Source of the DNA: Blastocatellia bacterium
Lineage (GTDB): Bacteria; Acidobacteriota; Blastocatellia; UBA7656
Reading direction: 5' to 3'
Length of the DNA stretch: 64,000 nucleotides
NCBI GenBank assembly: GCA_035293105.1
Contig: DATDOV010000066.1
Coordinates: 97,967 to 161,966, forward strand
Under the pieces are notes generated by a model, which searched no databases, was not told the origin of the DNA, and worked only from the letters and a program-made list of their open reading frames with translations. Positions 5,362 to 43,760 of the stretch are shown one piece after another. Numbering within the stretch: the first letter of the stretch is position 1; each line of letters begins with the position of its first letter. The translations under genes and the position numbers were made by a program.

Positions 5362-6339
5362 ATGCCGCACGTTAATACTGTAAAGGGACCTATTGATACC
5401 GCACAGCTCGGCGCGACGCTCATGCACGAACACGTGTTCGTCCTCGCGACCGAGATACTTCAAAACTACCCAGCCGAGTGGGGCGATGAAGAACAACGCA
5501 TCGCCGACGCTGTCGCGCGATTGAACGAGCTTAAGAGCCGCGGCGTCGACTCGATCGTCGACCTCACCGTCATCGGACTCGGCCGCTACATCCCCCGAAT
5601 TCAGCGCGTCGCCGCCGAAACCGATATCAACATCATCGTCGCGACCGGCGTCTACACCTACAACGACGTGCCGATGTATTTTCACTTTCGCGGACCCGGC
5701 ACCACACTCGGCGGGCCGGAGTTGATGGCCGACATGTTCGTCAAGGACATCGAAGAAGGCATCGCCGGAACCAGCGTCCGGGCCGCGATCCTCAAGTGCG
5801 CGACCGACGAGCCGGGCGTGACCCCGGGCGTCGAGCGAGTCCTTCGCGCGACCGCTCAAGCGCACCGGCGGACGGGCGTGCCGATCTCGACCCACACTCA
5901 CGCTCATACGCGGCGCGGGCTCGAGCAGCAACGCATCTTTCAAGAAGAGGGCGTCGACCTCTCGCGAGTGATCATCGGACATTCGGGCGACACGACCGAC
6001 ATCGACTATCTCGAAGAGCTGATCTCGAACGGCTCGTACATCGGCATGGACCGGTTCGGCATCGACGTGCTGCTTGGCTTCGAAGACCGCGTGAATACCG
6101 TAGCCCGGATGTGCGAGCGCGGCCACGCCTCGAAGATGGTCCTCTCGCACGACGCGGCGTGCTTCAATCACTGGCTGCCCGAAGCGATGGTGCCGGTGCT
6201 GCTGCCGAGGTGGAACTTCCTCCACATCCACAACGACGTGATTCCGGCGTTGAAGTCGCGCGGCGTCACCAACGAGCAGATCACGACGATGCTTGTGGAC
6301 AATCCGCGAAAGATTTTTGAGAGGCAGGGGGCGTACTGA
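5362..6339 (+). CDS. Phosphotriesterase family protein (PTE or PLL-type metal-dependent lactonase/hydrolase).
   Basis: The N-terminal LMHEHV HxH metal-binding motif and TIM-barrel amidohydrolase-like conservation are present. Length 325 aa. Confidence 0.8.
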   Translation: MPHVNTVKGPIDTAQLGATLMHEHVFVLATEILQNYPAEWGDEEQRIADAVARLNELKSRGVDSIVDLTVIGLGRYIPRIQRVAAETDINIIVATGVYTYNDVPMYFHFRGPGTTLGGPELMADMFVKDIEEGIAGTSVRAAILKCATDEPGVTPGVERVLRATAQAHRRTGVPISTHTHAHTRRGLEQQRIFQEEGVDLSRVIIGHSGDTTDIDYLEELISNGSYIGMDRFGIDVLLGFEDRVNTVARMCERGHASKMVLSHDAACFNHWLPEAMVPVLLPRWNFLHIHNDVIPALKSRGVTNEQITTMLVDNPRKIFERQGAY

Positions 6340-7841
6340 TGATCAAGCCGTTTGATCAATCCGGCATCACTCGTGGCGCGGACGGCGTAGCCCACTACGA
6401 CAATCGTCCGAACTCGCTGATCGAGATGCTCCGAGCGACGGTCGACAAGACTCCCGACAAAGAAGCGATCGTCGAGTTGGGCGGAGAGCGCGTGAGCTAC
6501 GAACAACTGTGGGACCGTTCGGCGCGCGTCGCAGGGGGGCTTGCGGCGCTCGGAGTCAATCGAGGTGATCGCGTGGCGATTCGGCTGGGAAACGGGCTCG
6601 ACTGGTGCGTCGCGTTTTTCGGCGGGTTGATGGCGGGCGCGGTCGTCGTTCCCGTCAACACGCGGTTCTCTGAGTCTGAAGTCGACTATGTGGTGACCGA
6701 TTCGGGCTCGCGGTTCACCTTCATGCCGGGCGAGCCGTTACCCGATGGCTCGCCGCTGGTCGTCGAAGACCTGTCGCGCGATGATCTCGCCGCAATCTTC
6801 TACACGAGCGGCACTACCGGTTTCCCGAAGGGCGCGATGATGACCCACGAAAACTTCCTGTCTAACACGGAGACCTGCCGTCGCGTCGTGAATCTCCCCA
6901 CCGACGGCCGGGTGAGGAACCTCGTGTCCGTGCCGCTGTTCCACGTAACGGGCTGCAACAGCCAGCTTCTGCCGACGTGTGAAACCGGAGATACGCTGGT
7001 CATCATGCCTGCGTTCGAAGTTCAGGCGTTCCTGAGCGCGATCCGCGATGAACGCATCAACCTGCTGACCTCGGTCCCGGCGGTCTACTGGCTGGCGATC
7101 AATCAGCCGAACTTTGCGGAGCTGGACACATCGGAGATCGGCTGGGTGAGCTATGGCGGCGCGCCGATCGCTCCGGAGCTTGTGGCGCGAATCATGGAGG
7201 CGTTTCCAAACGCGCGGTTGGGCAATGGCTTCGGTTTAACCGAGACCTCTTCGGTCGCGACGTTTCTTCCGCACGAGTACGCGCGCACGCGGCCGGAGTC
7301 GGTCGGGTTCGCCGCGCCGGTAGTCGATCTCGATTTGTTCGAGCCTGACCCGAGGACCGGCGCCGGCGAGTTGCTGGCGCGCGGCCCGAACGTGGTGAAG
7401 GGTTATTGGAACAAACCGGAGGCGACGGCGGAGACGTTTGTGAACGGCTGGCTTCACACGGGCGACATGGCCCGCATCGATGAGGACGGCTTCGTGCAGA
7501 TTGTGGATCGGATCAAGGACATGATCTGTCGGGGAGGAGAGAACGTCTACTGCGTCGAAGTCGAGAACGTGCTGGCCGCTCACCCGGCTGTGTTTGAAGT
7601 CGCGGTGCTCGGCGTGCCTGACGCGATGATGGGCGAGAAGGTGGGCGCGGTGATAGTGCCGCGTCCGGGCAAGGAGGCCGAGCCGACGGATATTCTGGCG
7701 TTCGCGCGCGAGCATCTGGCTGACTTCAAGGTCCCGCAGTACGTGGTGATCCGCTCGGAGCCGATTCCGCGCAACCCGGGTGGGAAGATGTTGAAGCCGA
7801 GATTGAGAAAAGAAGTTGAGTGGGGCAAACCGGTGCGGTGA
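6339..7841 (+). CDS. AMP-dependent synthetase/ligase (acyl-CoA synthetase).
   Basis: The YTSGTTGFPKGAMMTHENF AMP-binding signature is present, followed by a typical C-terminal GEKV...PRNPGGKMLK region. The start overlaps the upstream stop (TGATG). Confidence 0.85.
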   Translation: MIKPFDQSGITRGADGVAHYDNRPNSLIEMLRATVDKTPDKEAIVELGGERVSYEQLWDRSARVAGGLAALGVNRGDRVAIRLGNGLDWCVAFFGGLMAGAVVVPVNTRFSESEVDYVVTDSGSRFTFMPGEPLPDGSPLVVEDLSRDDLAAIFYTSGTTGFPKGAMMTHENFLSNTETCRRVVNLPTDGRVRNLVSVPLFHVTGCNSQLLPTCETGDTLVIMPAFEVQAFLSAIRDERINLLTSVPAVYWLAINQPNFAELDTSEIGWVSYGGAPIAPELVARIMEAFPNARLGNGFGLTETSSVATFLPHEYARTRPESVGFAAPVVDLDLFEPDPRTGAGELLARGPNVVKGYWNKPEATAETFVNGWLHTGDMARIDEDGFVQIVDRIKDMICRGGENVYCVEVENVLAAHPAVFEVAVLGVPDAMMGEKVGAVIVPRPGKEAEPTDILAFAREHLADFKVPQYVVIRSEPIPRNPGGKMLKPRLRKEVEWGKPVR

Positions 7842-8027
7842 ATGGCGTCGAGTATCTCCGTCGCACAACGTTTGGCTCGTGTCCTAATTTGAAGTCTTGC
7901 CCATAGCGGACTTTTGGTTGCGTTTTAAACGCGTGTTGCTCGCAGGCGCGAACGTGATAAGATGTGGCCCTACGCGCCGTAGCAACTTCCCGGCACGGAC
8001 ATGGAGTTAGATAAGCGGAAACCCTCT

Positions 8028-8056
8028 TTGCAAGCTGAACGAAGCATGCTATATAT
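8028..8056 (+). promoter_or_regulatory. Candidate sigma70-like promoter (TTGCAA, 16-nt spacer, TATATA) in the AT-rich leader of the island.
   Basis: Hexamers read directly from the sequence. The position is about 220 bp upstream of the 8275 ORF. Confidence 0.3.
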
Positions 8057-8274
8057 GGAATCAAATCTCGCACAGAGTAACGTCAAAGTATGCGTGTGCC
8101 TCTTTTGCTCAGTTCCGCCTGGGCTTGCGCTAGGCTCCGGCGTTCACCGCACCTCTGCGGAATTCTGAGCGATTCACGCTCATTTCGCCGGCGCTAGCAG
8201 CCCAACGAAGGTTCACAATTCGTTGCAAGCGCGGCAGGCAAGAAGTAAGGCCCGTCGACGAATCAGTAATCACC

Positions 8275-11200
8275 TTGGATGGCAAGCCTACGTTGAATCT
8301 AAAGGCCGAACTGCTGAAATACGGCGCTTCGAGCGACAGCATTCGTTCGCTTGGCGGACCCCCATCGTTGGAATTGCTCGACTACTTGGATTTGGTTGAA
8401 CGACCGGAGCCACGCCCGGGATTGTGGCCCCATTGTGTTGTGGAGAATCAGGGAAGACCGCTCCTGTTCGTTGTCGATGAAAGCGGCCTTGCGCTCCCCC
8501 CGGTGGAGTCACCAGCCGAGTTCGAGAACCTTCGGCGTTTGCTCGCTTGTCGGGGTGAGCGCTCCTACCTGGCCCGAGTGTTGCCAGGCGAATTGAAGGT
8601 CGTTCCGGTGGGCTTCGGGCCACTCCCCGGCTGGAAAACATACCGCCCTGGCACAGGCGACGCGACGACCTTTGTATCCAGACTGGCGTTTGGCGAGTAT
8701 GACGGCACCGGGGAACCGAGAGACACAGACTTTGTCTTCACCGAGATGTTTGAGCTGCTGACGGGAGTCGCCAATCGGCTGGTGGGAGCGATAAGCAAGC
8801 TTGACGTGCTATCGCTAATCGGCCGAGCCCTGTTCTTTCGCTTTTTGCGTGACCGCCACGTAGTAACCGACAGAGACACTCACGCGGTCGCACCAAGGGC
8901 AATCGAACTCCTCGCTTGTTTCGATAACGCGACGAACGCGGAAGCGACATGCCAATGGCTTGACCGCACTTTTAACGGCGATTTTCTGCCTCTAAGCGAT
9001 GGTGGCAGCGGACTATTCTTCGAGCGCGTAGAAGGGGAAACTAACGGCAGCGTCTTTTCAGAACTCAGCGCTATTCTCCGAAGCGAGAAGCCGGTCGGAA
9101 AGCAGAGCTATCAACTCCAGTTTGATTGGTCCGATTTCGACTTTGCGCACGTGCCGGTCGGTCTTCTGAGCCAGGTCTATGAAGCCTTCTGCTGGAAATG
9201 GGAGCCTCACCTTTCGAAGGAGACCAGCGTTCACTACACGCCGCGCGGCATAGCGGCAACGCTTGTGGGTGAGGTTTTCGACAAGCTGAGCGACGCCCAC
9301 AAGGCTCGCGTGCTGGACCCGGCATGCGGTGCGGGTATCTTCCTGGTACTGGCATTTCGTCGGCTCTATCGCGAGCATTGGAATGCGTTCGGAAAACGCC
9401 CAGATACAACGGATATTCGCAAAATCCTAGAAAGGCAACTCGTCGGATTCGACACCAGTGATTTTGCCCTCAGACTTGCCGCCCTTAGCCTTTACCTTAC
9501 CGCGATCGAACTGGACCCGAACCCAGTTCCACCTGAGAAGCTCAGTTTCAGAGCGCCTCTGCGCGATCGCGTACTGTTCAACTTCGGGCACCCAGACAAT
9601 GATCACGCTGCGGGATTCGAGATTGGTAGCCTCGGGCCAGAGGTGGACACGAGCTTTGATGGCGGATTTCATATAGTGTTGAGTAACCCGCCTTGGACTA
9701 CCTTACCTCCCGAGAAGAAGGAACTCGCGAAACAACTCGAAGAAGCCACCAGGTCTGTCATCCGTCGAAAGGGAGAGGTTGACATGGCGGGTGCTTACCA
9801 CAACCCCGACAACTCACCCGATCTCCCATTCATTTGGAAGGCAACGGAATGGTGTATGCCCGATGGACGTATCGCGATGGCATTGCCGGCCCGAATCCTG
9901 ATGAAGCAGGAGGAGACGCCGCGCTTTGCTCGTGAAATGCTGTTTCGTTTGGTAGAGGTGACTGGCATCATCAACGGTTCGAACGTTTCGGATACGAGAG
10001 TCTGGCGAAAGATGAATCAGCCGTTCATGCTTCTCTTTGCCAGGAACGGCCGGCCACGCAAGAGCGGAGTCCTTAGACTGATAACTCCTTACTACGACGC
10101 CCATCTCAATCGCCGGGGCGAAGTCAGGGTGGACTCAAAATCTTCCTATCCCCTCGAGGTGCAGGCCGCTCTGGATGAACCCTGGGTATGGAAGACACTT
10201 GCTATAGGCAGTTCTCTGGACGTTGACGTGGTGAGAAAGATAAAACGCTCGTCGGAAGTATCACTAAAGGATTACTGGGATGACCTCGAACTAGCGAGTG
10301 GGCAGGGTTATCAAATAGCCGATGACCAGGTTCAAAGCGATGCCGAGTTTCTGAAGGGCCTTCCGAACTTGGACTCGACCGATAAATTCCAGTTTGTCGT
10401 TGAGGCCGGAGAACTGAGTTCATTTGACCGAGAGACGCTTTGTTGGCCGCGAAAGGAGGAAATTTACGAACCTCCTCTGCTGCTCGCAAAGGCAGCACCT
10501 GGCAGTGACCGCAAATCAGGGCGGGCGCTGCTATGCCTAGAGAAGATCGCGTACAACGAAAGCTATTTTGGCTATTCCGCAGCCGGACATCCGGATGGGG
10601 AGTTTCTCATTCGCTATATACATCTATTCGCCCATAGTAACGTCTGGCTTTATTATGTGCTCATGACAAGCTCGGAGTTTGGCGCCGAACGACGCAAACT
10701 TCACAAGGCGGATTTGGATAGATGCCCGTTTCTTCTCCCCGAGCGACTGACTGCCGAACAGCGCCAAAAGGTGCTTCTTCTATCTGAAAGACTGGTCTCA
10801 AAAGACGTGACTGTGTTCGATGACATAGACACTTTCTTCTGCAGTCTATATGGCTTGGGCAAGCTCGAGATCGAGACCCTAAGGGACACTCTGGACGTCG
10901 GCCTGCCCTACAAGTCTGCGCGGCAACGCGCATGCGGACGTGCCAAACCCGAAGAAAGTGATAGCTTTTGTCGCCGAGTGGAGACGCTACTCCGGCCCTT
11001 TTTCAAGGTCATGGGGAACGAACCACGGGTCCGTGCGTGGGAGCCCAGTGACCCTTATGCAGCTTCTCACGCCCCGTTCGCCGTTATGGTAGTTAGCCGC
11101 ACTGATCGCACCGCACCGCTACCCGACGAGCTGTTTCGTACAACCATCCTGCCTCTTGCGAACGAAACTGGCGCGACCCGGATAATTCTGGAGCTAGACG

Positions 11201-11310
11201 GTGGGTTAGTAATTGGAATACTCAATCAGTATCGCTACTGGACACAAAGCAGAGCGAGGCTACTCGCGGGTGAATTGCTGGGCAATCACATGAGCGTATT
11301 CGAGACGTGA
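8275..11310 (+). CDS. Large 1011-aa protein with a gamma-class N6-adenine DNA methyltransferase core and long N- and C-terminal extensions. The architecture resembles Type IIG or IIL restriction-modification enzymes.
   Basis: Motif X-like VHYTPRGIAATLVGEVF, motif I RVLDPACGAGIFLVLAFRRL and motif IV VLSNPPW occur in gamma order. An MTase-like continuation (DGRIAMALPARIL) follows. The helical segment LIGRALFFRFLRDRHVV resembles the connector of MmeI-like enzymes. The gene has lower GC and a different codon flavour than neighbouring genes. Confidence 0.7.
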   Translation: MDGKPTLNLKAELLKYGASSDSIRSLGGPPSLELLDYLDLVERPEPRPGLWPHCVVENQGRPLLFVVDESGLALPPVESPAEFENLRRLLACRGERSYLARVLPGELKVVPVGFGPLPGWKTYRPGTGDATTFVSRLAFGEYDGTGEPRDTDFVFTEMFELLTGVANRLVGAISKLDVLSLIGRALFFRFLRDRHVVTDRDTHAVAPRAIELLACFDNATNAEATCQWLDRTFNGDFLPLSDGGSGLFFERVEGETNGSVFSELSAILRSEKPVGKQSYQLQFDWSDFDFAHVPVGLLSQVYEAFCWKWEPHLSKETSVHYTPRGIAATLVGEVFDKLSDAHKARVLDPACGAGIFLVLAFRRLYREHWNAFGKRPDTTDIRKILERQLVGFDTSDFALRLAALSLYLTAIELDPNPVPPEKLSFRAPLRDRVLFNFGHPDNDHAAGFEIGSLGPEVDTSFDGGFHIVLSNPPWTTLPPEKKELAKQLEEATRSVIRRKGEVDMAGAYHNPDNSPDLPFIWKATEWCMPDGRIAMALPARILMKQEETPRFAREMLFRLVEVTGIINGSNVSDTRVWRKMNQPFMLLFARNGRPRKSGVLRLITPYYDAHLNRRGEVRVDSKSSYPLEVQAALDEPWVWKTLAIGSSLDVDVVRKIKRSSEVSLKDYWDDLELASGQGYQIADDQVQSDAEFLKGLPNLDSTDKFQFVVEAGELSSFDRETLCWPRKEEIYEPPLLLAKAAPGSDRKSGRALLCLEKIAYNESYFGYSAAGHPDGEFLIRYIHLFAHSNVWLYYVLMTSSEFGAERRKLHKADLDRCPFLLPERLTAEQRQKVLLLSERLVSKDVTVFDDIDTFFCSLYGLGKLEIETLRDTLDVGLPYKSARQRACGRAKPEESDSFCRRVETLLRPFFKVMGNEPRVRAWEPSDPYAASHAPFAVMVVSRTDRTAPLPDELFRTTILPLANETGATRIILELDGGLVIGILNQYRYWTQSRARLLAGELLGNHMSVFET

Positions 11311-12029
11311 TTATGCCATATGGTTTTTACGATAAGCCAAGAGTCATAGAACTACCGCACCCGCCGGTAGCGCTCGCTGTCTTTCTCACCGTCGAGGCAG
11401 CGATGCTGGCCGCTTGGAATATCTTGCGTGTCAGACGCCGTCCAGGCTTCGACCTCTCGAATGCGGACGAAGACATCGTGACTCAGGAGCTTTATGAAGT
11501 CCTGTCCGACCAAGTGTTTGATAAGGGAGTCGTCGGCGGGTTTGACCGCGAACTTTTTACCGACATTAATCGCGAGTCGAAGTTTCGCAGTTACAACTAT
11601 GCCCATCTGGACAAGATGCCTGATCTGAACATTGGCCTTGTCGGCAGACAAGCTTTCTATCCGTCGCAGGACCGGATTTTCATGGAATGCAAGCCAGTAG
11701 ACTCAACGCACACCGTCGGTAAGCACTACTGCGGAATGGGCATTTTTCGGTTCGTCCGCGGGGAATATGCATGGACCATGACTAGCGTATTGATGATTGG
11801 CTACGTCCGCGAAGACTATAGGATAGTCCCAAAACTGACCGATGCCCTCAAGAGGGTGTCACACGAGATCAGTACTATCGGTGATCCGTATCAGTGCAGC
11901 AAATCCGAAGCCTCTTTGATCAGCGAGGCCGTCTACATTAGTCACCACGCTCGGAGGTTTGAGTACGTCGAAACTAGGTTGGCCGCTCCAGACATAACGA
12001 TCCGTCACCTCTGGCTACGTCGGGATTGA
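11307..12029 (+). CDS. Small 240-aa protein with a PD-(D/E)xK-like nuclease signature. It is translationally coupled to the upstream methyltransferase protein.
   Basis: The start overlaps the upstream stop (ATGA). The motif arrangement E(LFTDINRESKF) ... D(KMPDLNIG) ... ECK(IFMECKPVD) fits the E-(P)D-(D/E)xK pattern of restriction-endonuclease-like folds. It has the same low-GC character as the upstream gene. Confidence 0.45.
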   Translation: MIMPYGFYDKPRVIELPHPPVALAVFLTVEAAMLAAWNILRVRRRPGFDLSNADEDIVTQELYEVLSDQVFDKGVVGGFDRELFTDINRESKFRSYNYAHLDKMPDLNIGLVGRQAFYPSQDRIFMECKPVDSTHTVGKHYCGMGIFRFVRGEYAWTMTSVLMIGYVREDYRIVPKLTDALKRVSHEISTIGDPYQCSKSEASLISEAVYISHHARRFEYVETRLAAPDITIRHLWLRRD

Positions 12030-12225: not shown

Positions 12226-15093
12226 TCATCGTCTTCCCGCCCACACACTGAAGACCGTCCCGCCGCCGGCTTGCGCGCCCCACTCGACCTCCGCTTCAAT
12301 CAAACTCGCGCGCGAGCGGATGTTCGCAAGCCCGCGCCCATTCGAAACACTCCTCGCCGCAGCATCAAATCCCCTGCCGTTGTCCTCAAGCCGAATCACC
12401 CAACGGCCCTCCGAGTCGCACGACACTTCCAACCGCACGTGCGTCGCCCCCGAGTGGCGGCACACGTTGCTGATCGCTTCCTGAACGATTCGATAGACCT
12501 GAATCTGGACGGCAGGCGCGAGTCGCAGCTTCTCTTCGATGGCTTCATCGCAAGCGAACTCGTACTCGAACCTTCCCTCCGCCGGCATGTGCGCGACCGC
12601 GTCCGCAACCGCCCACTCGAGCGCCGCCGCCAACCCGACATTCGCGAGCGCCGACGGGCTCAGGTCTTCGCATATCCGCCGAATCTCCGTCGATACCGCT
12701 TCGATCTCGTTGCGAAAGACCGCCGGCTCGATCCCGTCGCGTCGCTCGTCACCCTCGCGCGCCGGCAGTTGATCGGTCATCAACAGCAATCGTCTCAAGT
12801 CCGCCAGCGTCTGGTCGTGCAAGTCGCGCGCGATCCTCCGCCTCTCTGTCTCCGTTTCGTTGGCCAACTGCATTCGAGTCTCGGCAAGCTGCCGATTCGC
12901 ATCGCCGAGCGCGACGTTGCTTGCGGCCATCCGCTTGTTCTGACGGTGGCCCCACCACATCGCCACGAGCGCCAATCCGAGCAGCGCCGCAAGCGCCGTC
13001 GTCGTCCACGGAAAGGGCGCGCGCGCGACTCGAAACTCGAGCGCAAGCGGCTCTGAAACCACCAGGTCGTTGGTGAACGCGCGCGCTTCGATGCGATACC
13101 GGCCGGGCGTCAGGTTCTCGATCAGGAACTGCGAATCGCGCGCGAGCTTATGCCTGAGCGGCCTGCCCGCCGAATCCAGAAGGGAGAACGAATACTGAAA
13201 CTGCTCGGGGAATGTGCGGCCGCTCAGCGCCTCCACGTCGAGCGCGAGGCTGTTTTGCGGATAATCGAGATCGAGCCCCGCGCGAATCTCGTCGGGTTGG
13301 AACACCCGCTTGCTCATCACCCGCGCGGCTCGAAGCTGCGGAGCGACGCGGCCCGGAACGTAGCGCGCAACCCCGTGACTGGTCCCGACCCACAACACTT
13401 CTTCGCCCGATGCGCCGGTGGTGCTCAGAATCGCGAACGCATTCTCCGAAGGAAGACCCTGCTCCGTGTCGAGCCGCGCGACAATGGCTTCGCCTCCTTC
13501 GTCGAGCAGCACCTTGTAGAGCCCTCCGCCCGCGGTCACGCACCATGCCGCGTCGCCCTTAGCCGTCACTCTTCGCACGTCGTTGCCTTTAAGCGGCCAG
13601 AGCAACTCACCCGCGCGAAGCGCCGCAAGGCCTCGTGGCACCGCGACCCACAACACCCCGTCGCTCGTTCCGCCAATCGACCAGGCCGTCTCGTTGCTCA
13701 AACCGTCGAGCGCGGCGTCGCGTCGGACCTCTTTGCCGTCGAAGACGAGGACGCCGCCGTCCGCCGCGCCGATCCACAAGCGCTTGCCGTCGTCGGAGTG
13801 CAGGCTGACGAGCGAGTCATTCGCCCAGACGAGCGTGCGGCGATCTCGTTCCAGTCGCTCGAGACCTCGCCCGAAGCCCGCAATGTAAAACGAGCCTTGA
13901 AACTCGCAGATGGCCCGCACGCTTCCGGCGTCCCGGTCATCGGTTTTGACTCTTGTAAAGAGCCGTGAGCCCGCGAGCGCACCCGGCACTCCGCGAGCGC
14001 GCCGCTGCCGGGTCGTCGGCTTCGCGCCGGTGAATAGACCCGAGGCCGTACCGACGAGCAGATGTTCGGGTGCGTCTTCGGCAATCGAGTGAACCGTGTG
14101 GCCGCGTAGCTCAGGGACCTCAACCCAGCGATCGGCGCTCTTGTCGCGAACGAAGAGACCTCGATTCGTCCCGCACCATATCCATCCGTCTCGCGATTGA
14201 AAGAGCGCGCGGGCGAAGTTGCTCTCCGGACGATCGGAGACGGCTTCGATTCGAAGGCTGTTCGGATCGTAACGGCACGCGCCGCGATCGGTCCCGAACC
14301 AGATCACGCCTTCGCGATCGACGAAGACAGCGTAGATGTGATTCGACCGAAGCCCGCCTGCGGTGTTCTCAAACGTGAAGTGCTCGAGTTGGCGGGAGCC
14401 TCGATAGAGAAACGCGCCGTGACCATCTGAGACGATCCAGAGGTTGCCGTTTTGGTCGGGCGTCAGGGCCGTCACTTCGCGCGCGGGCACGGCCGGCGGT
14501 CGCATCGTCTCTCGGCTTTGGCCCGCCGCGCTTTGGTCGACGGTCGTCCGAGCGCCCGGTGACGGGCCTCGCGCGTCGGAGTCGGCAACAGGTTTGAATT
14601 CACCGTCGATCAGACGCACTGTGCCCGAGGCGGTTCCAATTCGGAGTGCACCGTCGTCGTCGATTTTGATAGCACGCACTCCGCCTAATGGAAGACCCTC
14701 AGCAGTGATCTTCTGAACACGGCGGCCGTCGTAGCGAGCGAGGCCGTTGTCGGTTCCGAACCAGATGAAGCCCTCGCGGTCCTGGGCTATGGCTCGCACG
14801 TGATCGGAGGGCAGGCCGTGGAACAACGTGACCGCGCCCCACTGATGGAGGTTTGTTGAGGGAGTTTGGAGCGCGGGCGTTTGCGCCGGAACTGCGCGCA
14901 GCGCGAGACACGTGAGCAGCACGCCGGCGAGGGAAGACCAGCCTTCAATCAAGCACAGTGCCCGCGCAGAAGGATAGGTCGCTGACTGGCCCAAGCTACT
15001 CGGTTTGCTTCTCACTTCGTGGAGTCTCATCACGACCCAAAATGTAGCCCGGAGCTCTTCATTAGGGTCCGAATGTTCGACGCTTGCGAACAC
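12226..15093 (-). CDS. Hybrid-architecture sensor histidine kinase. It has an extracytoplasmic two-component-regulator beta-propeller with Y_Y_Y-like repeats, a TM segment, a HisKA_3 dimerisation domain and a HATPase_c domain.
   Basis: Repeated WIGT/WFGT/WVGT propeller motifs, one TM helix (ALAALLGLALVAMWW), a NarL-class H-box (IARDLHDQTLADL) and a C-terminal ATPase G-boxes region. The true start is probably downstream of the ORF start. Confidence 0.8.
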   Translation of the reverse strand: MFASVEHSDPNEELRATFWVVMRLHEVRSKPSSLGQSATYPSARALCLIEGWSSLAGVLLTCLALRAVPAQTPALQTPSTNLHQWGAVTLFHGLPSDHVRAIAQDREGFIWFGTDNGLARYDGRRVQKITAEGLPLGGVRAIKIDDDGALRIGTASGTVRLIDGEFKPVADSDARGPSPGARTTVDQSAAGQSRETMRPPAVPAREVTALTPDQNGNLWIVSDGHGAFLYRGSRQLEHFTFENTAGGLRSNHIYAVFVDREGVIWFGTDRGACRYDPNSLRIEAVSDRPESNFARALFQSRDGWIWCGTNRGLFVRDKSADRWVEVPELRGHTVHSIAEDAPEHLLVGTASGLFTGAKPTTRQRRARGVPGALAGSRLFTRVKTDDRDAGSVRAICEFQGSFYIAGFGRGLERLERDRRTLVWANDSLVSLHSDDGKRLWIGAADGGVLVFDGKEVRRDAALDGLSNETAWSIGGTSDGVLWVAVPRGLAALRAGELLWPLKGNDVRRVTAKGDAAWCVTAGGGLYKVLLDEGGEAIVARLDTEQGLPSENAFAILSTTGASGEEVLWVGTSHGVARYVPGRVAPQLRAARVMSKRVFQPDEIRAGLDLDYPQNSLALDVEALSGRTFPEQFQYSFSLLDSAGRPLRHKLARDSQFLIENLTPGRYRIEARAFTNDLVVSEPLALEFRVARAPFPWTTTALAALLGLALVAMWWGHRQNKRMAASNVALGDANRQLAETRMQLANETETERRRIARDLHDQTLADLRRLLLMTDQLPAREGDERRDGIEPAVFRNEIEAVSTEIRRICEDLSPSALANVGLAAALEWAVADAVAHMPAEGRFEYEFACDEAIEEKLRLAPAVQIQVYRIVQEAISNVCRHSGATHVRLEVSCDSEGRWVIRLEDNGRGFDAAARSVSNGRGLANIRSRASLIEAEVEWGAQAGGGTVFSVWAGRR

Positions 15094-34051: not shown

Positions 34052-34498
34052 ATGTCTGAAAAACACATTCCGGCCGAACGCCGCCGGGTGATTCGCGATC
34101 AGGCCAATGGAATCTGTGAATACTGCCGCAGCCAGGAGTGCTTCTCGCCTCAGCGGTTTTCCGTCGAACACATCAAGCCCCGCTCGGCTGGGGGGCAACC
34201 GACCCGGGAGAATCTGGCTCTCTCCTGCCAGGGCTGCAATGGGCACAAGTACACGAAGCAAAAGTCACCCGATCCCGTCACGGGCGATGTCGTTGCACTG
34301 TTTCACCCGCGAAGACAAAGGTGGCGCGATCATTTTGCCTGGAGTGTAGATGCCTCGCTCATTGTGGGTCTAACGCCTGTCGGACGAGCGACGGTTGAAG
34401 CGTTGCGGATGAATCGCATTGAACTGGTCAACCTGCGGGAGGTCCTCTATGGCGCGCAGAAACATCCCCCCGCTGAACCCGATGAAGAATACGGATAG
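34052..34498 (+). CDS. HNH endonuclease.
   Basis: CEYC ... EHIKPRSAGG ... N ... CQGCNGHK gives the full HNH zinc-finger signature. Confidence 0.75.
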   Translation: MSEKHIPAERRRVIRDQANGICEYCRSQECFSPQRFSVEHIKPRSAGGQPTRENLALSCQGCNGHKYTKQKSPDPVTGDVVALFHPRRQRWRDHFAWSVDASLIVGLTPVGRATVEALRMNRIELVNLREVLYGAQKHPPAEPDEEYG

Positions 34499-40682: not shown

Positions 40683-43600
40683 ATGAAACGTTCCCGCGTA
40701 GCTCTCAGCCTGCTGCTTACAGTCAACCTCATAATCGTCTGCGGCGTCGTGAACGCTCAGACCACGACCGCGACGCTCGAAGGCCGCGTCGTTGACAGCT
40801 CCGGCGCCGCCGTTGCCGGAGCTAATGTCACCGCCGTCAACGCGAGCACCGGCATCTCGCGCTCGGCCGTCGCGTCCGATTCCGGCGAATACCGAATTCC
40901 GCTGCTGCCGGTCGGTGACTACACCGTCACCGCCGAACACTCGGGCTTTGCAAAAGCCACAAAAAACGTCACCCTGCAAATAGGTCAGGTCGCCGCCCTA
41001 GACTTCACGATGCAAGCGGGCGGCGTCAGCGAGAAGGTCGAAGTCCAGGCCGGCGAAACAGTGATGGAACCGACTCGGACCGAAGTCAGCTCGGTCATCA
41101 GCCAGCGCCAAATAGTGAATCTGCCGGCCAACGGACGTCAGTTCATCGACTTCGTGCTGCTCGCGCCCGGCGTGACCATCGGCGACACGACTTCCGGCAG
41201 CACCGACGTCATCGTCGAGCCGGTCACCAAGATTTCTTTCGCCGGCCAGAATATCCACTACAACTTCGTCGCAATCGACGGCGCCGACAATATGTCGACC
41301 GCGTCGGGGATTCAAAAGACAACGCCCTCGCAAGGCGCCGTCCAGGAATTCCGCGTCGTCAACACGGTCTACACCGCGGAATTCGGCCGCGCCGTCGCCG
41401 GCATCGTCAACATCATCACCAAGGGCGGCACCAACGACCTGCACGGTTCGGTCTACGAGTTCTTCCGCGATGACGCACTCGACGCGCGAAGCATCCTGTC
41501 GTCGCCGGGACTCGACAAGCTCCGCCAGAACCAGTTCGGCGCGACCATAGGCGGACCGATGAAGAAGGACAGCGCATTCTACTTCATCAACTATGAGGGC
41601 CAGCGCCGCAGCGAATCGCCGTTCTACAATTCGACCGTGCTTGCAAACATCAACGCGATCAACAACGCGAAGGTCACGCGCTATGGCCTGCCGCGAGAGG
41701 ACCTCAACGTGATCCGCGAGTCGAACGCCGACAACGTTCTGGTCAAGCTCGACAACAACCTCGGCAGCCGAAACAACCTGAGCTTCCGGTACTTCTTCAA
41801 CGATGCCCGCTACACCAACGTCTCTCCGCTCAACGACGGCTTCGACCTGCCGTCGGGATTCAAGGACAACTTCCTGCGAGACCAGTCGCTGGTCGGCAAC
41901 TTGATTACGACCGCCGGCTCGTTCTCCAATGAGCTGCGCGGCCAGTACGCGCGCCGCTTCTTCGACTTCCCGACCGTGAGCACCCAGCCCCACCTCGAAG
42001 TCGCCAACACGTTCGCGATCGGAGTCAACCGCGGCAATCCCGATTTCTACAAGGAGAGCCGCTTCGAAGTCGTGGACAACGTGACTGCAACACGCGGCCG
42101 CCACACGATCAGCTTCGGCGGGAACATCAACTTCGTGCGCACCACCGAATCGTTCCCGCTCTTCTACCCGTTCGAAGCCACCTTCGCTTCGCTGCAAGAC
42201 TTGCTTGACGGAAACCCGTTCGTGATCTTCTTCCAGCGATTCCGCGCGCCCAATTTCGACGAGCCGACAATCGCCACCTCGGCCTATAACGACGCGCGAA
42301 TCCCGGACAGCGTTCGCAACCAGGCGAAGGGCGAAATGGACCACACCTACAACGGCGTGTTCATTCAGGACAAAATGCGGCTCGGCAGCCGGCTGACGGT
42401 GAACGCCGGGCTGCGTTACGAATTCGAGACCTGGCCGTCGAAGGCGCTCAACAACGACCTGAACAACTTCGATCCGCGGGTCGGCTTCGCGTTCGACGCC
42501 GGCACGAAGTGGAACGTGATCATTCGCGGCGGAGCGGGTCTCTTTCACGGCACGATTCCGTCGCCGCTCTTGTCGTGCCAGATTCCTTCATGCGGCGGGC
42601 CGAAGAAGTACCCGGGGCGCGAGGACAAACAGGACGATCTGAATTCGACGACCGGCCTGTTCGCGTTCGGGGCCGACCCCGTCACCATGCAGGCCGCGCT
42701 CGCCAACCTGATCGGGCCCGCCGTCGCGACGGGAATCTATCCGAGGTTCGCGCCCGGGCCCGGCGGCGATGCTCAAAAGGCGACGATCGTGCGGTTCGCA
42801 AAGGACCATCAGGCGCCCTACGGAATTCAGATGAGTCTGGGGCTCGAGTTTGAACCGCGTCAGGGAACCAACATCGGCGCTTCGTACCTGCGCGTCAGGG
42901 GGGTTCATCTGGGCAGTTTCTTCAACGTGAACCAGCCGGAGCCGACAGGGAGACTTCAGAGCGGCGCGCCGGATTATGCCGCGTTGCGTCCGCTGTCGTT
43001 CTGCCGGCCGTGCTTGCTCGACCGGCGGATCGCGGTGCCCGGATTCCGCAATCCGGAATTCGGGGTCTTCTTCGAGGCCGATTCGAGATGGAACTCGACT
43101 TATGACGGCTTGTTGGTCAACGCCAACCAGCGGGTGAAGAACTGGTTGAACTTCGGGATCGGCTACACGTTCTCCAAGTCGATCGACGACGGTCCCAATC
43201 CGAGCTTCGTGTTGATACCGGTCAACTCCGCGCGCATCGATGAGGAGCGGGCGCTGTCGGCCGACGACGCGCGGCACCGGTTCGTTGGCAACGCCACGTT
43301 CGCCACGTCGCCCGCCGGGAACGCGTTCACGCGCGACTTCCAGTTGAGCTTCATAGTGACGCTGGAATCGCCTCACCACTTCACCAAGTTCGCCGGCTTC
43401 GATGCGAACGGCGACGTGTTCGGGGTCAACGACCGTGTCGGACTGGATGGCAGAAACACATTCGAGGGTGATGACCTCAAGACCGTGGATATCCGGGTGT
43501 CGCGGTCGTTCAAGATCCGCGAGAACGCCCGCATCGAGTTGATCGCCGAAGCGTTCAATCTCTTCAACACGCTGAACGTGCGGTTCTTCAACACGGTGTA

Positions 43601-43760
43601 CGGGGATTCGATTTTCCATCCGGCCAACAGCTCGATCAACGATCCGCTGCTGGGCCCGATTCCGACGTTCCGCGAGGGCGCGCTCAATCCGGCTTATGGG
43701 AACCCGAGGGCGATCTTCAATCCCCGCCAGGTTCAGTTCGCCGCGCGCTTCAACTTCTGA
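40683..43760 (+). CDS. TonB-dependent receptor with an N-terminal carboxypeptidase-regulatory-like (CarboxypepD_reg) domain.
   Basis: Signal peptide, then TLEGRVVDSSGAAVAGANVTAVN ... GEYRIPLLPVGDYTVTAE (the CarboxypepD_reg fold), then a plug region and a long beta-barrel ending in an aromatic C-terminal residue (RFNF). Confidence 0.85.
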   Translation: MKRSRVALSLLLTVNLIIVCGVVNAQTTTATLEGRVVDSSGAAVAGANVTAVNASTGISRSAVASDSGEYRIPLLPVGDYTVTAEHSGFAKATKNVTLQIGQVAALDFTMQAGGVSEKVEVQAGETVMEPTRTEVSSVISQRQIVNLPANGRQFIDFVLLAPGVTIGDTTSGSTDVIVEPVTKISFAGQNIHYNFVAIDGADNMSTASGIQKTTPSQGAVQEFRVVNTVYTAEFGRAVAGIVNIITKGGTNDLHGSVYEFFRDDALDARSILSSPGLDKLRQNQFGATIGGPMKKDSAFYFINYEGQRRSESPFYNSTVLANINAINNAKVTRYGLPREDLNVIRESNADNVLVKLDNNLGSRNNLSFRYFFNDARYTNVSPLNDGFDLPSGFKDNFLRDQSLVGNLITTAGSFSNELRGQYARRFFDFPTVSTQPHLEVANTFAIGVNRGNPDFYKESRFEVVDNVTATRGRHTISFGGNINFVRTTESFPLFYPFEATFASLQDLLDGNPFVIFFQRFRAPNFDEPTIATSAYNDARIPDSVRNQAKGEMDHTYNGVFIQDKMRLGSRLTVNAGLRYEFETWPSKALNNDLNNFDPRVGFAFDAGTKWNVIIRGGAGLFHGTIPSPLLSCQIPSCGGPKKYPGREDKQDDLNSTTGLFAFGADPVTMQAALANLIGPAVATGIYPRFAPGPGGDAQKATIVRFAKDHQAPYGIQMSLGLEFEPRQGTNIGASYLRVRGVHLGSFFNVNQPEPTGRLQSGAPDYAALRPLSFCRPCLLDRRIAVPGFRNPEFGVFFEADSRWNSTYDGLLVNANQRVKNWLNFGIGYTFSKSIDDGPNPSFVLIPVNSARIDEERALSADDARHRFVGNATFATSPAGNAFTRDFQLSFIVTLESPHHFTKFAGFDANGDVFGVNDRVGLDGRNTFEGDDLKTVDIRVSRSFKIRENARIELIAEAFNLFNTLNVRFFNTVYGDSIFHPANSSINDPLLGPIPTFREGALNPAYGNPRAIFNPRQVQFAARFNF

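Follow-up and report, generated by a model that had tools for sequence, protein, structure and literature searches.

The locus described here raises the question of which protein cuts DNA when an enzyme built like a single-chain restriction-methyltransferase lacks a working nuclease site of its own and is followed by a second nuclease gene. It lies in a 64,000-nucleotide stretch of DNA from a Blastocatellia bacterium (contig DATDOV010000066.1, positions 97,967 to 161,966 of the forward strand), the whole of which is referred to here as the window. A 1011-codon open reading frame (ORF) at 8275-11310 (+), which begins with TTG and ends with a TGA stop codon at 11308-11310, encodes the M subunit, a 1011-residue N6-adenine methyltransferase and target-recognition protein of Type IIG architecture. 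The R subunit gene follows at 11313..12029 (+) and encodes its partner, a stand-alone PD-(D/E)xK endonuclease of 238 residues. Established knowledge of restriction-modification (R-M) systems, in which methylation shields host DNA and the nuclease cuts unmodified DNA, makes it very likely that the pair is an R-M system with a separate, active nuclease. The more specific reading that we favor, tentatively and as plausible rather than probable, is that of a horizontally acquired two-gene R-M module of Type IIG ancestry, which would restrict DNA by means of a nuclease held in a complex with the methyltransferase.

The large protein is real and not a chance ORF, having more than 2,300 homologues, the best 120 of which are full-length at 54-90% identity. 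The original prediction for this gene, made by a model from the sequence alone, had listed the motifs of a gamma-class N6-adenine methyltransferase in their expected order, and all of them were found in that order in the core at residues 291-600 (9145..10074, +): motif X, HYTPR, at residues 320-324 (nucleotides 9232-9246), motif I, DPACGAGIFL, at residues 348-357 (nucleotides 9316-9345, with DPACGAG at 9316-9336), and motif IV, NPPW, at residues 471-474 (nucleotides 9685-9696). D348, G352 and N471-P-P-W474 are kept in 75 of 75 members of a wider set of full-length homologues at 37-60% identity. Methyltransferase profiles match as well: the Pfam families N6_Mtase (3e-12), MmeI_Mtase (1e-10) and Eco57I (5e-6) each pass their curated cut-offs, and the two top PADLOC models are Type IIG restriction-methyltransferase profiles (about 1e-25). 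Matches in PDB sequences are to Type I M subunits, and the PADLOC and NCBIfam matches to PglX, DrmMI and MAD2 cover the methyltransferase core only and are far under the curated cut-offs (24-31 bits for the NCBIfam PglX models, against cut-offs of 400-900).

Around this core the protein is organized as in BpuSI, in which, as published, the nuclease spans residues 6-174, the connector 175-289 and the methyltransferase 293-579, with the recognition domain starting at residue 580 (PMC3185434); the corresponding boundaries here, 1-172, 173-290, 291-600 and 601 to the end, coincide with these. When the AlphaFold (AF2) single-chain model, built on 36 homologues, was compared with the PDB by Foldseek, BpuSI ranked first with a full-length alignment, followed by M.BseCI, CamA and M.TaqI, which consist of methyltransferase plus recognition domain, and then by PglX/BrxX and DrdV; MmeI is also among the best structural matches, and the proposed kinship with Type IIG enzymes is thus well founded. 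The helical connector (residues 173-290, 8791..9144, +) is delimited by the BpuSI connector boundaries and by the start of the PADLOC alignments. It contains the near-invariant SLxGRALFFRFLxDR and WLDxTFNGDFLPL, the best-conserved motifs in the N-terminal third, and the predicted ALFFRFLRDR lies within it at residues 185-194 (nucleotides 8827-8856). The target-recognition domain and a conserved C-terminal region occupy residues 601-1011 (10075..11307, +), and the recognition domain is single and HsdS-like, with the stretch of greatest variability at residues 651-725. Near the C-terminus, QYRYWTxSRARLL (residues 985-997, nucleotides 11227-11265) hardly varies, even among homologues of only 30-34% identity, and has no match in any library searched; it could be a partner-binding or DNA-binding surface. 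In a lenient Pfam scan (E up to 5-10) of 36 methyltransferase homologues the N-domain, connector, recognition domain and C-terminus remained unmatched, and at E up to 5 no Pfam family beyond the methyltransferase-domain families occurred in more than one of the 36 members.

The quality of the model varies along the chain, with a mediocre overall predicted local distance difference test score (pLDDT) of 72, good values for residues 630-1000 and fair ones for the N-domain. The pLDDT falls below 50 at residues 313-364 (nucleotides 9211-9366), the S-adenosylmethionine-binding part of the core, though these are among the best-conserved regions, probably because the alignment of 36 sequences is shallow. 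Because the core is poorly modeled we have avoided residue-level structural claims about it.

The feature that sets the protein apart is its N-terminal domain, residues 1-172 (8275..8790, +), which is conserved and lacks the catalytic triad. BpuSI has catalytic residues arranged as D60-x15-E76-x-K78 (PMC3185434). The relic of this PD-x15-ExK motif, PHCVVENQGRPLLFVVDESG (residues 52-71, 8428..8487, +), runs from P52-H53 to E69-S70-G71 with spacing identical to that of BpuSI, at the beginning of one strand and the end of the following one in a modeled beta-hairpin (54-58/61-68); the D, E and K of BpuSI are represented by H53, E69 and G71. The original prediction had found no clear triad here and no lysine in FVVDESG, which proves correct: FVVDESG is at residues 65-71 and contains no lysine, and the defect extends across the family. 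Position 53 is D in 81% of 121 close homologues and in 79% of the 75 in the wider set, position 69 is E in 93% and 56% respectively (it is lost in 44% of the wider set), and position 71 is K in only 3% (R in 70%) and 5%, with R, H, S, Q, G or a gap there in over 95% of the family. The complete D-E-K triad is found in 4/121 close and 4/75 wider homologues, and the homologue alignment contains no invariant lysine anywhere within residues 1-172. The Type IIG profiles of PADLOC align only from about profile position 172, or residue 173 of the protein, so that its N-terminal 170 residues are not recognized by them, and a profile of the N-domain found no match in all PDB sequences.

The domain has nevertheless been kept, since its column identity among close homologues (0.73-0.83) is at the level of the catalytic core, and this conservation without the triad implies a retained, non-catalytic role. 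Y37, D39, E57 and R93 are each present in at least 97% of the 75 wider homologues, with E57 and R93 in 75/75 and D39 in 73/75; these residues (Y37-D39 at nucleotides 8383-8391, E57 at 8443-8445, R93 at 8551-8553) are conserved while the D, E and K positions decay. On this sequence evidence the N-domain is presumed to be a decayed PD-(D/E)xK nuclease domain that no longer cuts. Type IIG enzymes have been defined as gamma-methyltransferases whose N-terminal cleavage domain is "permanently present" (PMC3874165). An intact PD-(D/E)xK site within the same polypeptide is absent here, so that with a dead cleavage domain the protein fails a defining Type IIG feature, though it shares the architecture, including the ordered gamma-class motifs, the helical connector and the single C-terminal recognition domain.

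An intact nuclease site is present in the partner. Its ORF can be opened at a GTG at 11307 that overlaps the methyltransferase stop codon, but the ATG at 11313, 2 nucleotides past that stop, is the likely start because it fits the homologues and gives the 238 residues of a 100%-identical database protein (P0121); residue numbers for the partner are counted from the alternative start at 11307. The catalytic motif, PD-x20-ExK (11613..11696, +), consists of K103-M-P-D106 (11613-11624) and E127-C-K129-P130 (11685-11696), and E55 (nucleotides 11469-11471) lies on the preceding helix. In an alignment of 37 homologues E55, K103-M-P-D106, Q121 and E127-C-K129-P130 are invariant, and E55, P105, D106, E127, C128 and K129 are unchanged in 83/83 partner homologues, down to about 35% identity. 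The single-chain model has a confident restriction-endonuclease fold (pLDDT 90) with the alpha-beta core, helix glutamate, (P)D and (D/E)xK elements of the PD-(D/E)xK class, and its nearest structural neighbors are OkrAI, BamHI, BstYI and BglII.

Sequence libraries gave no name to this protein. Searches of Pfam, NCBIfam, PADLOC, PHROGs and PDB sequences gave no match to it, also when profiles were used and thresholds relaxed; a lenient Pfam scan (E up to 5-10) of 37 partner homologues returned nothing, and the partner profile found a chance match only among all PDB sequences. A profile search of 1.84 billion representatives returned 638 clusters, 477 of them at E <1e-10, and the 150 clusters listed of these 638 are all stand-alone proteins of at most 274 residues, the shorter ones being fragments, with no fusions; the usual length in the family is 230-270 residues. 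The original prediction had suggested that cleavage moved from the large protein to a separate subunit. The separate, intact nuclease gene bears out one half of this; the other half does not hold literally, since hhalign gives a probability of 0.07% for the partner against the N-domain, with a sole aligned stretch that overlays the two "PD" motifs and is not significant. The lack of detectable homology points to replacement by a different nuclease lineage and not to gene fission, and an origin of the partner by fission or duplication finds no support in this result.

The two genes travel together. When GTDB was scanned with one genome for each species, 254 partner genes were confirmed; of the 80 loci kept, 77 have a methyltransferase homologue directly upstream on the same strand, with an estimated intergenic gap of mostly -7 to 0 nucleotides. 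Two of the three remaining loci have no upstream DNA, and the third, L061, is unmatched over 2.1 kb upstream. At two of the 77 loci (L046 and L056) the methyltransferase match is C-terminal only, from residue 507 or residue 745, despite 5 kb of upstream DNA; pseudogenes, faulty assembly or nucleases that occur alone could account for these two and for L061. Two distant partner homologues (E about 1e-31 to 1e-35) also lie directly behind a homologous methyltransferase, one of which is 34% identical over its full length, N-domain and C-terminal YRYWTPSRARLL motif included. Partner matches occur in 5 of 72,556 plasmids and the N-terminal 300 residues of the methyltransferase match the same 5; in the two of these plasmid loci that were inspected, RefSeq names the genes "N-6 DNA methylase" and "hypothetical protein". 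Where the methyltransferase retains the D-E-K residues, at four loci, the partner gene is still present, as checked in two of them. The nuclease-like gene that the original prediction saw behind the methyltransferase is a PD-(D/E)xK gene whose motif is 100% invariant, and the two genes are linked in all cases in which linkage could be tested.

The base composition of the pair suggests acquisition from elsewhere. The methyltransferase and partner genes have a G+C content of 55.2% and 52.4%, against a window mean of 60.4% and 62-64% for the flanking housekeeping genes, so that the pair looks like a small acquired island, and in 4 metagenomic or metagenome-assembled-genome loci the pair is intact while every neighbor is different. 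Most carriers belong to Verrucomicrobiota, Planctomycetota, Acidobacteriota, NC10 and Desulfobacterota; a few are plasmids of Proteobacteria. The system does not appear to be phage-borne, since there were no matches in 50,697 phage genomes and only one provirus-like contig in IMG/VR. When all ORFs flanking the related loci were clustered, no universal third gene and no translocase emerged.

Two variations in the setting of related pairs were also seen. In 14 of the 80 loci a LexA-family gene of about 213 residues (LexA_DNA_bind plus Peptidase_S24) is found on the same strand, 0-115 nucleotides upstream of the methyltransferase gene and at about locus positions 1200-1950. These loci (L049, L062, L066-L070, L076-L078, L081 and L084-L086) form a divergent sub-clade and point to a version of the system with three genes, controlled by a repressor that is of SOS type or cleaves itself; neither a LexA gene nor any other regulator gene accompanies the window copy. 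On Agrobacterium tumefaciens plasmid pAtK224b (L088; NZ_CP115927, 92811-107284) the homologous pair is within a defence island. An XRE regulator gene immediately precedes the pair, and the island also encodes an integrase, AbiEi with AbiEii, a further restriction endonuclease and, in one cluster, a cysteine desulfurase, a DUF4007 protein and an ATPase.

In the mechanism that we propose for the complex, the 1011-residue protein would read its DNA site through the single HsdS-like recognition domain and place an N6-methyl group on an adenine there, thereby marking host DNA, while its own N-terminal nuclease domain would no longer cut. Cleavage of unmarked DNA would fall to the 238-residue endonuclease, translated from a shared transcript 2 nucleotides downstream, which would dock on the retained pseudo-nuclease domain and the helical connector. 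One recognition domain would then direct both cutting and methylation, as in the split "Type IIG*" systems discussed below, in this case without a translocase. In Type I and Type IIG enzymes the N-domain/connector region couples cutting and methylation. Such a complex accounts for the selection on a dead N-domain and its connector and for the one-to-one co-occurrence of the N-terminal region with the partner. The fuller version of the model, a translocase-free two-protein enzyme in which the dead nuclease domain is the dock for a PD-(D/E)xK subunit and the recognition domain directs both methylation and cleavage in trans, is possible and is offered with a little more reserve. It would amount to a minimal "Mod/Res-like" design, derived from a Type IIG enzyme by non-orthologous nuclease replacement, present in at least 254 bacterial species and placed in one sub-clade after a LexA-type repressor.

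A mirror-tree comparison gives a weak hint in the direction of docking. With the divergence of the methyltransferase core regressed out, partner divergence has a partial correlation of 0.33 with that of the N-domain (bootstrap 0.18-0.46) and of 0.14 with that of the recognition region (bootstrap -0.01 to 0.30), the lowest value, and the difference between the two is zero or negative in 2.6% of bootstrap replicates; these statistics ignore phylogeny, and the apparent preference may be read only with that in mind.

There are considerations that weigh against a complex. The mirror-tree signal is small as well as uncorrected for phylogeny. The nearest structural neighbors of the partner are self-sufficient, sequence-specific homodimeric Type IIP enzymes and not FokI-like non-specific modules, its size is typical of stand-alone enzymes, and many of its residues are invariant outside the active site and could be DNA-recognition residues of its own. 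An independent, conventional Type II pair of IIP-like character is nearly as likely as the complex-forming arrangement. The separate endonuclease and methyltransferase genes in one locus are those of a conventional Type II system, and in such a pair the 238-residue protein would, as its fold neighbors and size favor, act as an autonomous homodimer that cuts a short palindrome alone, the large protein would be the cognate methyltransferase of Type IIG descent, which methylates both strands of the palindrome, and the dead N-domain would be kept for folding, regulation or DNA binding and not for holding the nuclease. What this leaves unexplained is the selection, in every member, on a dead N-domain and connector of about 290 residues, and the identical set of plasmids matched by the N-terminal region and the partner; that partner divergence tracks the recognition domain least is also not in its favor. 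Palindrome avoidance, although a weak test, also speaks against it. The window has no CAGCTG at all (0 occurrences where a Markov model expects 11.9, z = -4.5), but when palindromes were counted in 733 kb of host loci taken together none stood out, CAGCTG being about two-fold depleted there like many others, so that its absence from the window is not attributable to this system. No target sequence can be deduced from palindrome avoidance in the window and these host loci, and the supplements of Blow et al. 2016 contain no methylome of the cultured hosts Zavarzinella, Malonomonas, Pelagicoccus and Kuenenia.

Two other explanations are less likely, one of them considerably so. The large protein could be a Type IIG enzyme of the ordinary single-chain sort, its N-domain still cutting through a non-canonical site (for example D39/E57 together with another base), and the downstream gene would then encode an accessory or unrelated nuclease. 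We consider this highly improbable. The near-complete conservation of D39 and E57, the frequency of D53 and E69 and the few full D-E-K triads among close homologues would fit it; against it are the replacement of the lysine in more than 95% of members and the loss of E69 in much of the wider set, the H53 and G71 of the present copy together with the want of any invariant lysine, the retention of the partner beside D-E-K variants and the 100% conservation of the partner's own triad. A non-classical role is unlikely, although less so than a single-chain enzyme: the pair might form a defence or addiction module linked to methylation, in which the nuclease responds to another trigger (for example DNA damage or abortive infection), or an orphan regulatory methyltransferase with a repair-type nuclease. 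The LexA-family gene of the divergent sub-clade and the defence-island setting of the A. tumefaciens copy are in keeping with such a role, as is the fact that PglX-type methyltransferases work in BREX without known cleavage (PMC11341690). It is opposed by the flanking genes, which differ at every locus, by the want of a regulator at the window copy and by the sub-threshold, core-only scores against PglX, DrmMI and MAD2 with all BREX, DISARM and MADS partner genes missing. A methyltransferase gene adjoining a PD-(D/E)xK gene is, moreover, the textbook signature of an R-M system.

The complex-forming arrangement that we favor is best placed by comparison with known systems. Single-chain Type IIG enzymes of the BpuSI/Eco57I type have a collinear architecture, but here the catalytic D/E/K is replaced by H/E/G, the N-domain matches no Type IIG profile, and there is an extra conserved C-terminal region and a separate nuclease gene instead of an extra methyltransferase. 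A review of Type I and Type IIG enzymes lists no organization with a dead domain plus a separate nuclease (PMC3874165). Of the MmeI family (Type IIL) only the MmeI_Mtase model matches, the flanking nuclease, connector, recognition and C-terminal models of that family being unmatched; in contrast to MmeI enzymes, the N-domain here is not a working nuclease and a partner gene is present.

The closest likeness is to the REBASE "Type IIG*" systems, in which an MmeI-type methyltransferase/recognition protein without PD-ExK is accompanied by a nuclease on a separate peptide (Blow et al. 2016, PMC4752239). The three examples are AchA6III, with a phospholipase D (PLD) nuclease fused to a translocase, OspHL35III, with a translocase and a GIY-YIG nuclease, and MexAMORF1192P, with two translocases and an HNH nuclease, and a single recognition domain is presumed to act for all components (PMC4752239). 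The present pair has both the PD-ExK-less protein of MmeI/Type IIG architecture and the adjacent endonuclease gene; it differs in that a translocase occurs in all three examples and is absent here, where the nuclease is a small stand-alone PD-(D/E)xK protein and the relic domain is visibly retained, a distinction drawn from the published descriptions of those proteins. In Haloferax volcanii, HVO_A0006 and HVO_A0237 have been proposed as a split Type IIG enzyme, also with nuclease and methyltransferase/recognition parts on separate polypeptides, but the HVO_A0006 nuclease is a fragment with homology to the N-terminal part of Type IIG enzymes, and its gene does not adjoin the other (PMC4389544), whereas here the dead N-domain is still attached and the partner is of an unrelated PD-(D/E)xK lineage. 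The idea of a split Type IIG-like system therefore has precedent (PMC4752239). No published description of this particular pair was found in open-access text. The family is a large, unnamed two-gene R-M variant of Type IIG ancestry.

More distant parallels can also be drawn. PglX/BrxX of BREX is another nuclease-less, partner-dependent relative, although PglX begins with a bundle of helices where the present protein has a nuclease-like domain (PMC11341690). The window and the related loci lack PglZ, BrxC, BrxL and the other genes on which BREX depends, and assignment of the pair to BREX, DISARM or MADS was rejected for missing partner genes and sub-threshold scores. The partner shares with the Type IIP enzymes BamHI, OkrAI, BglII and BstYI the PD-(D/E)xK fold, a similar size, and a helix glutamate together with a PD...ExK-type site. 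In the heterodimeric Type IIS enzymes BtsI and BspD6I a small catalytic subunit needs a large recognizing subunit, but there the large subunit is a nicking nuclease and here it is a methyltransferase, so that the analogy is functional and mechanistic only.

If the nuclease is guided by the methyltransferase, the pair would be a compact two-protein restriction enzyme with its specificity in one recognition domain, a design that would lend itself to the discovery or engineering of new specificities. A pseudo-nuclease domain would clearly have been reused as a subunit interface, and the pair would stand midway between the fused Type IIG enzymes on one side and multi-subunit systems of Type I/III and Type IIG* on the other, where a gap now exists. 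Even as a conventional Type II pair it would include a large nuclease family that is nameless in every library searched (the 638 clusters being defined at 50% identity) and that current pipelines label "hypothetical protein", while single-gene logic may misfile the methyltransferase as a fused Type IIG enzyme. Under either reading the pair is an R-M system and no major concept is altered.

In the window the pair lies between an acyl-CoA ligase gene at 6339-7841 (+) and a sensor histidine kinase gene at 12226-15093 (-), both named from Pfam matches, and a search for island borders near the pair found no meaningful flanking repeats. The 433-nucleotide non-coding spacer on its 5' side (7842..8274), which contains only short ORFs, presumably holds the promoter of the pair, judging by its position; an Rfam search, a promoter and terminator scan and a small-ORF search of this spacer gave no Rfam match, no sigma-70-like site and no regulator gene. 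Further along, a 148-residue HNH endonuclease ORF at 34052-34498 (+; Pfam HNH 1.6e-11), whose adjoining ORFs have no Pfam match, lies inside a second stretch of low G+C content (34-36 kb, 54% G+C) and may be another acquired element. A hint at the host lineage, along with the nearest homologues of the pair, comes from an outer-membrane protein encoded at 40683-43760 (+), which has CarboxypepD_reg and a beta-barrel domain and is of a type that is abundant in Acidobacteriota.

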